Part shown: positions 35,901 through 36,660 of the stretch, piece by piece
Numbering within the stretch: position 1 is the stretch's first letter
How the letters are laid out: the number at the start of each line of letters is the position of its first letter
NCBI GenBank assembly: GCA_045659405.1
Contig: JAZOWX010000015.1
Location: 9,143-73,142 of the forward strand
DNA length: 64,000 bases
Direction of reading: 5' to 3'
Source: Eubacteriales bacterium
Lineage (GTDB): Bacteria; Bacillota; Clostridia; Oscillospirales; CAG-272
Made by a program: the position numbers and the translations under genes
The notes under the pieces: generated by a model
What the model was told of the DNA's origin: nothing
Seen by the model: the letters and a program-made list of their open reading frames with translations, nothing else
Databases searched by the model: none

Positions 35901-36660
35901 ATGTTTCCTCTGTAAGAGGAGAGGTGAACTTATAACCGCCAAGGTTGTCAAGAGAAATGCCGTCGGAGAACGCAGTCATACGACGGATGCCGTCTTCGGT
36001 ACGCTCGATTGCAAAGATATCACCGTTTGCATCGATGGAATACCATACTTCAGCATTGTAATCCTCGTTGTAGGTTCTTGTGTAGAAGTAGCCGTTAGCG
36101 AAGATGTATTCTACGTTAGTGGCATACTCGGAGTTCACAAAGATTGTACCGTTTTCAACCTTGCCCTTCATCGCTTCAGCGATAGCAAGAGCCTTGTCGA
36201 TAGTAGAGAGGTCGGGCTCGTCAATCTGGATCTCACATACTGTACATACGCCGAACATATTAAGGGTGTGACTTGCTACGTCTGCCTTAACATTGTGCTC
36301 GCAGTTTGATGCGTGCCAGTGGTTGTTAGCATCATAGCTCCAAGCGGAGTCGTAGGTGTGCTTGTGAGCAGCTGCCGCACAGGTATCACATACGCCATCG
36401 TTGTTCGCGTCAACCTTCTCGTGACCGTGTGTTGCGACACCGTCATTGTTGCACACGTCGCAAAGTCCGTCACCGTTCGTGTCCACTTTTACGTGGCCGT
36501 GTGTTGCGGCACCGTCAGAATTACAGGTATCGCAAACATTGTCAGCATTTGCATCTACAAACGCATGACCGTGTGTATCCGTCGCATCGGGAGCTTCACA
36601 TCCGACCATGAGAGCCACGATAGCTATGATACACAGAAGCAGTTTGAAACTTCTTTTCAT
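32923..36660 (-). CDS. Very acidic 1245-aa lipoprotein with an N-terminal His/Asp/Cys repeat module and repeated beta-sandwich-like domains
   Basis: ATG at 36660 after GGAGG. Lipobox 'ALMVGCEA'. Three 24-aa repeats of 'THGHxxVDxNxDxxCDxCN'. Two C-terminal ~95-aa repeats are separated by 'GEGEGD'/'SEGEGD' linkers. Confidence 0.85.
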   Translation of the reverse strand: MKRSFKLLLCIIAIVALMVGCEAPDATDTHGHAFVDANADNVCDTCNSDGAATHGHVKVDTNGDGLCDVCNNDGVATHGHEKVDANNDGVCDTCAAAAHKHTYDSAWSYDANNHWHASNCEHNVKADVASHTLNMFGVCTVCEIQIDEPDLSTIDKALAIAEAMKGKVENGTIFVNSEYATNVEYIFANGYFYTRTYNEDYNAEVWYSIDANGDIFAIERTEDGIRRMTAFSDGISLDNLGGYKFTSPLTEETYYYGLEELVVGLWELGKDDWNGDLESSVEDGVFAFSYGYFFDGTFYVVNVDFELSDEYYIENANVSIKSYGESFDWDTYETIMEYVIVPGATEDDEPTYAVAEGAEGYGIMDYTFAQNVEVENPYPADEILASSFKIVDAEGVEIGSILNVEIGTPVYLYLTEILPETAIIDLIEVNAIGEAADNFDVYIFVTEDEDGNWAIKVNGYTAGEFEITLVVNGVEKALTINNTEAVPTEVIVNSYKEEELYNEWWDEYYYAYVASAASSEITVWAGSPVILMGATDKGDNRNCIVTVNGVAATLSEIGVDAEYGMDYINALILDTAEAGEYEIVFTSEADETLTQTVTVIVKAAPDMNELLDGKYVYTVDGINVYEVEFDSWFGTFKLTHVVYDDEAQIWKLYDAEYSYEWTDDGLVTKLKGGYDFDVSVIVNENYELEIDGNVLSKETAEGALVGTWVYREFDMETFEFTNKYFITFNADGTGVFKAEGVEFYFDYVIGEFDEDEYAYHITITATEGAANVGETTAFGAGATVTYRYDAGFSSLYVGNGEIEYDQEIFYDYGKAELEVEKYVWPIDISADMPTNIYNWTFEGGVAPELIELALNALPGKYVIYMCDFVDGSLIADSDKANFVVNGMSVAGILSFEVDAEQRIVLGLEILAEVFDYNVFVEYTPVATEDDGEEEGGETVSGNTVTVTTDINSSLNQGEYTYTIDADGNITIYNGTEVASFNDTYALKFVDGVLTINAAPYEKIMIKYSDDDTTTLAGSWKYVMNLGGEMVVYDITFTAEATEDNEGEGEGDENTNSVVLNVGSNDVVVSEDELGALLGADYTFTPEVSGDFKISSNDLYIVSITIGTTPVNYESGYATLEAGVTYTLTISAQFITEVAGTYTLNIAAPESEGEGDSEVESNGNVLQVGANTATASMAEAMMGVNWTFTAEVAGQYTIEYTNNVNYVLEGPSVVMNFTAEAGQEFIFLVYPMGGGEYTLTIIAPEA

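Follow-up and report, generated by a model that had tools for sequence, protein, structure and literature searches.

A probable metal-stapled stalk next to the lipid anchor: a His/Asp/Cys repeat module in surface lipoproteins of gut Clostridia

What is the role of a His-, Asp- and Cys-rich repeat module that begins only 8 aa past the lipobox cysteine of a large surface lipoprotein? The module is encoded in a 64,000-nt stretch of contig JAZOWX010000015.1 from an Eubacteriales bacterium of the Oscillospirales (this whole stretch is referred to below as the window). It lies at the start of P0001, an open reading frame (ORF) at 32923..36660 whose 1245-aa translation is laid out as a lipobox, three half-units, one full unit and ~1100 aa of acidic, beta-rich sequence; no known domain was found in this protein when Pfam and NCBIfam were searched. 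An initial annotation, made from the DNA letters, had described the module as an extracellular metal-binding element shared by two lipoproteins of one operon, and had proposed a function in anchoring, metal sensing or docking to a von Willebrand factor A (VWA) domain. The evidence presented here favors another view as the best explanation, namely that the module probably forms the anchor-proximal stalk of a surface lipoprotein, stapled by zinc and possibly braced by calcium.

As read directly from the sequence, the N-terminus of the 1245-aa protein, MKRSFKLLLCIIAIVALMVGC, is a lipoprotein signal, in which the signal peptide and lipobox MKRSFKLLLCIIAIVALMVG are followed by Cys21 (36598..36660; all the window features given here are on the minus strand), and the orthologs of the protein carry LLVSC or LLISC at the equivalent place. 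The three 24-aa repeats, which start at aa 29, 53 and 77, follow the pattern T-H-G-H-x-x-V-D-x-N-x-D-x-x-C-D-x-C plus a six-residue linker. Half-unit 1 (THGHAFVDANADNVCDTC plus linker, aa 29-52) is located at 36505..36576, half-unit 2 (THGHVKVDTNGDGLCDVC plus linker, aa 53-76) at 36433..36504, and half-unit 3 (THGHEKVDANNDGVCDTC plus an AAAA linker, aa 77-100) at 36361..36432, with the last two residues of the latter overlapping the start of the full unit. This full unit of 44 aa (HKHTYDSAWSYDANNHWHASNCEHNVKADVASHTLNMFGVCTVC, aa 99-142, 36235..36366; 63 bits in the hidden Markov model match) has the pattern HKHTY..HWH..CxH..H..CxxC with eight ligand positions (H99, H101, H114, C120, H122, H131, C139 and C142), and its short C-terminal half, HTLNMFGVCTVC, is devoid of the DxNxD acidic loop. 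A single stand-alone knuckle, CPPHRDTDKSGICDKCG, is present in the linker after the lipobox of the neighboring 490-aa lipoprotein (aa 34-50, 38154..38204). The three repeats, the HKHTY unit that follows them and the copy in the 490-aa protein are therefore all present where the initial annotation had placed them.

In pairwise comparisons the three repeats are 54-63% identical at the protein level and 54-64% at the DNA level, different codons are used at more than half of the identical residues, and Tandem Repeats Finder detected no DNA-level tandem at the repeats. The low DNA identity, the differing codons and the lack of a DNA tandem indicate that the repeats are old duplications, maintained by selection on the protein. 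The repeats are conserved in orthologs: nine positions (T1, H2, H4, D8, N10, D12, C15, D16 and C18) are invariant in 19 half-unit copies of seven orthologs, and the positions outside these nine vary. Close orthologs carry two or three half-units. Across all the six-frame ORFs of the 1.81-Mb genome there are 16 instances of the core pattern D.[DN].[DN]..C[DE].C, confined to five ORFs, against 0 in each of 20 residue shuffles. When the genome was searched with the 122-aa fragment, only the gene itself was recovered, and the pattern search was needed to find the other knuckle proteins.

Relatives were collected by a search restricted to aa 22-150 of the 1245-aa protein, which gave 36 other long proteins. 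In the N-termini of these relatives the basic unit of the family is ~50 aa long, is arranged head-to-tail and conforms to HxHT[YF]xxxWxxDxxxHW[H]xxxC[x]H-x9-HxDxNxDGxCDxCG[YW]. By this comparison the 24-aa repeat is not the basic unit; it is the C-terminal half of the ~50-aa unit fused directly to HxH, with the beta-sheet part lacking. Among 117 non-redundant units, H5, H18, C24, C43 and C46 are invariant and H35 is found in at least 90%, either His or Cys occupies position 3, and position 26 takes H, C or D. Eight positions are thus of the ligand type, and the substitutions among them are as expected of metal ligands, which suggests that the initial annotation was right to regard the His and Cys residues as a metal site: the positions are invariant, or His, Cys and Asp interchange at two of them. 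Stand-alone knuckles open with HxH, CxxH, CxH or CxxC as their first ligand pair, always ahead of the same DxDxD..CDxC. A ~75-aa sister variant, in which only the first 37 profile positions match and a different ~37-aa part follows, is also common. The claim that the module is unannotated stands as well, as no Pfam-A or NCBIfam model was found for any variant in scans that covered complete proteins as well as fragments, the relatives, and the genome's other knuckle proteins; all matches were noise below threshold (DUF7685, DUF4379, HMBD, EF-hand_1 and various zinc ribbons). A precomputed match of the relative P0010 to PF27309 corresponds to a faint MJ0753_N hit, and was judged irrelevant.

The comparison of the unit profile with the PDB sequences returned one entry, 9qa6_A, which is the IgA protease (M64) of Thomasclavelia ramosa (E 2.9e-4). 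Two stretches of this protein match, namely subdomain II of ZBD1 and of ZBD2, and all the ligand positions of the N-terminal 35 aa are aligned. ZBD1 and ZBD2 have been modelled with AlphaFold3 as rods of ~110 Å built of three-stranded sheets, with putative 2His+2Cys zinc sites at the subdomain (sheet) interfaces; they are dispensable for catalysis, and their fold was called "novel ... pending experimental validation" (PMC12237041). The same domains were named CTD2 and CTD4 in a second report, where the term 'metal-associated periscope domains' is used and CTD2 is a fully extended rod by small-angle X-ray scattering (PMC12415215). The alignment indicates that the full unit of the window is homologous to ZBD1 and ZBD2, and that it is a member of a still uncurated kind of module that was first noticed in 2025. 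The possibility that the motif would match an already described domain was hence realized in part, with a related module described that year in the IgA protease. The only published precedent is ZBD1/ZBD2, as a prediction.

The likeness to the protease domains extends over the N-terminal 35 aa (HxH..W..D...HWH..C.[CH]...H, every ligand position), the three-stranded up-and-down antiparallel sheet (which for the unit is an AlphaFold2 prediction), the putative His/Cys sites at the sheet ends, and the placement, with the cell anchor on one side and the working domain on the other; neither is expected to depend on disulfides. The ligand pattern H(x)H...HW[H]...C-x(1-4)-[CH]...H of the protease domains is present in the full unit, but not in the three half-units. 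A further sheet of ~37 aa (subdomain III) comes after each sheet of the protease, whereas in the window the sheet leads into a DxNxDG-type knuckle of 10-12 aa or into a bare knuckle. Furthermore, the protease carries two separated copies ahead of a sortase anchor and the window protein an N-terminal tandem array after the lipobox, and no counterpart of the three 24-aa half-units exists in the protease. Neither the C-terminal half that bears the acidic loop nor the stand-alone half-unit is described in the protease papers; both are variants.

When the window's own unit was modelled with AlphaFold2 together with the 117-row alignment (mean predicted local distance difference test score, pLDDT, 95.2), three antiparallel strands (residues 7-13, 17-22 and 29-34) and a C-terminal knuckle were obtained. 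From the strand order of this model, and by analogy with the models of the IgA protease, H3, H5 and C24-x-H26 would lie at one end of the sheet, and H18 and H35 at the other, beside C43-x-x-C46. Two tetrahedral zinc sites at opposite sheet ends, {H3, H5, C24, H26} and {H18, H35, C43, C46}, can accordingly be proposed. An independent hint comes from the linker that separates a unit from the preceding CxxC. In 59 proteins that contain both position-3 types, the linker of the Cys-type units, compared with that of the His-type units, was shorter in 53 and longer in 3 (within-protein sign test, 8e-13). The modal linker length is 5 residues ahead of His-type units and 4 ahead of Cys-type units. Linker length tracks the type of ligand, and therefore fits metal sites at the unit junctions. 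The strand topology and the linker statistics agree in this respect, and together they suggest that the zinc sites are placed at the junctions. The likeness of DxNxD to a calcium loop, which the initial annotation had pointed out, also gained support, because family-wide the occurrence of DxNxD goes with that of an acidic residue after the first Cys (796/17/211/182; odds ratio, 40), and Dx[DN]xDG loops always recruit a further acidic residue downstream in the chain (PMC3123361).

From these observations the following mechanism can be put forward. Zinc sites at the junctions would staple each unit to its neighbors, so that the array would become a thin, stiff rod. In a half-unit the sheet would be lost, and what would remain is one HxH...CxxC knuckle with four ligands (H, H, C and C) and presumably one zinc; in half-unit 1 the proposed zinc site consists of H30, H32, C43 and C46. 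This knuckle would wrap the loop D-x-N-x-D-[G/N]-x-C-D, whose ligands are arranged as in Dx[DN]xDG calcium sites and in which the downstream acidic ligand would be the Asp after the first Cys; in half-unit 1 the proposed acidic loop is D36, N38, D40 and D44. Together, the modules would raise the ~1100-aa globular part off the membrane, as a "periscope". Metal binding and the identity of the metals, the residues of the shared sites, the rigidity of the stalk and the folding of the half-units are what we infer here.

The Dx[DN]xDG loop is known from EF-hands, dockerins, thrombospondin type 3 repeats and at least a dozen other contexts (PMC3123361). The module shares with these loops D1, N/D3, D/N5, usually G6, and a later acidic ligand (here D9), but flanking helices and the bidentate acid of position 12 are missing from it; a predicted metal-ligand Cys takes the hydrophobic position 8 in the module, and G6 is often N in the clade of the window. 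No match to the Pfam models of dockerin, thrombospondin type 3 or Strep_his_triad was obtained with the whole proteins and fragments. Excalibur (PF05901) is an extracellular bacterial calcium-binding region with the motif DxDxDGxxCE. It resembles the module in being an extracellular mini-domain with a DxDxDG loop and, just past it, a conserved Cys and an acidic residue; however, the register is off by one (C9-E10 in Excalibur, C8-D9 in the module), Excalibur has no His ligands and no CxxC, and PF05901 did not match the fragments at any E up to 10. In the 490-aa protein, CPPH-x7-G-x-CDKCG recalls HMBD (PF19335) with its CP.H...G.C..CG pattern, but the fragment of this protein scored only 11.4 bits (E 0.33) against a cut-off of 23.6 bits, and HMBD sits on efflux and P-type ATPase proteins and is without an acidic loop. 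With rubredoxin knuckles the module has the CxxCG knuckle in common. Finally, the G5-E (SasG/Aap), Rib and SHIRT stalks (PMC12415215) are likewise tandem, copy-number-variable and anchor-proximal, have no large hydrophobic core and project a head, but they are unrelated in fold and sequence, and are stabilized by beta-sheet packing and not by buried His/Cys metal sites.

The distribution of the module bears on whether it is tied to one operon. Among 1.84 billion cluster representatives, the unit profile matched 6461 proteins at E <= 1e-3 (counted as clusters at 50% identity), 2095 at 1e-10 and 464 at 1e-30, almost all from uncultured gut Clostridia. In 182 unit-bearing proteins that were collected, the number of units ranges from 1 to 19 (median 6), a lipobox-like signal is present in 157, and in 144 no more than 60 aa separate the lipid-anchor Cys from the first residue of the array. 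At least 362 confirmed stretches were found in species-representative genomes, and all but two of the best 80 of these are in uncultured gut Clostridia (Eubacteriales, Oscillospiraceae, Ruminococcus, Lachnospiraceae and Christensenella-like). In evenly drawn samples, the module was present in 54 of 301 genomes of the order of the window (42 of 152 genera) and in 9 of 401 genomes across the phylum. The partner domains are mostly unannotated, and where they are annotated they are diverse: BspA-type leucine-rich repeats (LRR_5), FGE-sulfatase, Flg_new, MBG, pectinesterase, pectate lyase, Peptidase_S11, SLH and Big_3. These data indicate that the module is a promiscuous spacer and a general building block; the variation between two and three half-units in close orthologs is what a spacer would be expected to show.

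The two exceptions outside Clostridia are Bacteroidales and Prevotellaceae bins on very short contigs (2.3 kb for L057 and 6.5 kb for L080), and here mis-binning seems a better explanation than a genuine occurrence. The sample included one other genome of the window's genus, G648, in which the unit profile matched nothing; the gene with the module may thus vary even among members of one genus, or this assembly may be incomplete.

With respect to the operon, the 80 loci from species-representative genomes that resemble the unit most closely include 48 with MoxR, DUF58, BatA-VWA, VWA-VWA and a homolog of the 490-aa protein directly upstream, and the subfamily of the 1245-aa protein is often encoded by the last gene of such MoxR-DUF58-BatA-VWA-VWA operons. 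In L002, L004, L007, L009 and ~44 other loci, from many metagenome-assembled genomes of gut Clostridia, the conserved order is MoxR, DUF58, BatA-VWA, double-VWA, a ~500-aa lipoprotein and the stalked large lipoprotein, and some of these operons, such as that of L004, encode two ~520-aa lipoproteins. No genes of this operon were detected within about 10 kb in any of 20 module-bearing loci of the window's own order, and the proteins P0004 and P0011 are encoded in unrelated neighborhoods without MoxR/VWA genes. A general tie between the module and MoxR/VWA operons was hence rejected, because it holds for one subfamily (48/80) and for none of the 20 loci from the window's order. The sharing of the module by both lipoproteins of the operon, as asserted in the initial annotation, did not hold as a rule either. 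Orthologs of the 490-aa protein were found in 50 related loci; the knuckle is strictly conserved, within a flanking linker that varies, in four close orthologs (70-79% identity), but in all 31 of the more distant orthologs with a readable N-terminus, from the same type of operon, it is absent and a low-complexity linker is found instead.

Several observations weigh against the stapled stalk. No neighbor better than E 2 was found by Foldseek when the model of the unit was compared with the PDB, the zinc sites of the IgA protease are themselves AlphaFold2/AlphaFold3 inferences, and the covariation and linker statistics, with the exception of the within-protein sign test, ignore shared ancestry. 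As for calcium, the Gly of Dx[DN]xDG (position 6) is replaced by N in 10 of the 19 half-unit copies, against 6 copies with G, 2 with E and 1 with K, and EF-hand_1 stayed below threshold (E 0.1, 12.6 bits against a cut-off of 25.4). In addition, when the N-terminal 137 aa were modelled with AlphaFold2 from only 7 sequences and no metal, the half-units had a pLDDT of 33-46 and no secondary structure; the alignment was too shallow for this to count structurally in either direction, and they may be disordered without metal, or always. The latter would suit a metal-free flexible linker, in which the half-units are disordered spacers and the conserved residues serve processing, glycosylation or post-export disulfides, and plain low-complexity linkers do occupy the same place in the distant 490-aa orthologs. 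Yet the 9 of 18 positions that never change in the 19 copies are precisely H, H, D, N, D, C, D and C plus T, the ligand positions undergo His/Cys swaps across the variants, and the model in question was built from so few sequences and without metal; such a linker is therefore very improbable. At the opposite extreme, the 24-residue half-unit could be an autonomous two-metal micro-domain, in which zinc clamps the ends of the hairpin and calcium fills the loop, and stalks of half-units and full units would then have a length and stiffness that depend on ambient zinc and calcium; this is a rather unlikely extension of the stapled stalk.

The remaining explanations give the metal another task. Zinc (or nickel, cobalt or copper) could be held reversibly outside the membrane and passed to importers, as in the streptococcal Pht proteins. 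The many closely spaced sites on lipid-anchored proteins, up to 19 units in each, would serve such a buffer, and binding by His-rich sites is more labile than by Cys4; but no Pfam match to Strep_his_triad or to a transporter partner was seen, no metal importer adjoins the gene in the window or in related loci, four-ligand sites have no open coordination position (PMC12415215), and the attached domains are enzymes and adhesins. Metal buffering of this kind we consider improbable. Less probable still, and on a par with the flexible linker, is calcium-dependent docking, by which the DxNxDGxCD loops would bind the metal-ion-dependent adhesion site (MIDAS) of a VWA domain, or another surface protein, in the manner of dockerin and cohesin. 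Here the upstream MoxR-DUF58-BatA-VWA-VWA-490-aa homolog genes in 48 of 80 loci, the knuckles on both lipoproteins in the clade of the window and the similarity of the loop to those of EF-hands and dockerins have to be set against the 31 distant 490-aa orthologs without a knuckle, the 20 loci of the window's order away from any such operon, and the unrelated neighborhoods of P0004 and P0011. Moreover, the acidic loop is entirely missing from the last unit of the window protein and from many units elsewhere, and there is no dockerin or thrombospondin type 3 match. The VWA-MIDAS docking and metal sensing put forward in the initial annotation thus find no support, as a promiscuous spacer on leucine-rich-repeat adhesins, pectinases, a peptidase and SLH proteins, in loci without MoxR/VWA, argues that the module is not an operon-specific docking device. 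The least probable reading is that the CxxC(G) knuckles are redox-active or iron-loaded, i.e., that they hold rubredoxin-like iron or act as a thiol-disulfide switch outside a strict anaerobe. The CxxCG knuckle aligns weakly with rubredoxin knuckles (E 0.4-3.5), and all-Cys knuckles (CxxC...CDxC) exist in another lipoprotein of the same genome; however, the rubredoxin match is non-significant and spans ~10 residues, no redox partners are encoded in the neighborhood, and the sites of the window are rich in His (2His+2Cys and 3His+1Cys), which is typical of structural zinc.

The zinc-stapled stalk thus remains the preferred explanation, and it concerns a module that is found in thousands of surface proteins of uncultured gut Clostridia without a Pfam or NCBIfam model. 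With a family model, the regions next to the anchor could be annotated in many "hypothetical" lipoproteins, and the stalk could be told apart from the working head. If the stalk is real, zinc staples that replace disulfides would be a general answer to the need for small, stable extracellular domains in strict anaerobes, and the half-units are small enough to ask in them whether a single knuckle can fold by itself. Were the half-unit indeed an autonomous two-metal micro-domain, it would be among the smallest self-folding extracellular modules known, and metal withholding by the host in the gut would directly change the reach of the surface enzymes and adhesins of Clostridia.

The gene of the 490-aa lipoprotein (36831..38303, an ORF with no Pfam match) is immediately upstream of the gene of the 1245-aa protein. 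No terminator was detected in the 170-bp gap between them, and a terminator-like hairpin of 13 pairs followed by a T run is located just past the stop codon of the 1245-aa gene (32845..32874). Because the gap is without a terminator and a strong one follows the second gene, co-transcription of the two lipoprotein genes is plausible. The body of the 1245-aa protein (aa 145-1245, ~1100 aa, 32923-36230) is very acidic and has no Pfam or NCBIfam match; in the C-terminal third of the protein several ~90-aa segments with similar 'AG.YT' ends look like repeated beta-sandwich modules.

Stand-alone knuckles with other first pairs (CxxC, CxDxDxDH, CTNH and CTH) are present in at least three further lipoprotein ORFs of the same genome, after the lipobox and between globular domains, and no Pfam match to these proteins was found. 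A 1431-aa lipoprotein ORF on contig C33 (87145-91438, minus strand) has at least 11 stand-alone knuckles of ~19-29 aa (CxxCxDxDxDGxCDxC and CxDxDxDHxCDxC), which are placed after the lipobox and between four or five globular domains of ~200 aa; Pfam gave no match on the two knuckle-rich stretches of this protein that were scanned. Two ORFs that reach contig ends, C64:29540-30080 (plus strand) and C10:28971-30534 (minus strand), have a near-identical C-terminal part, ..LIQPGNYPWE.TTLKFA.NMHSHNGELSSGSKRYLAGF.., and C-T-[NH]-H-x-D...C-D-x(1-3)-C knuckles, directly after the lipobox in the C64 ORF, and the pair looks like a repeated gene that broke the assembly. Finally, a 4857-aa ORF at C62:7383-21954 (minus strand) contains isolated HWY.C..C and H.H...C..C motifs of a similar flavor, and may encode a very large surface protein that carries some sister-variant units.

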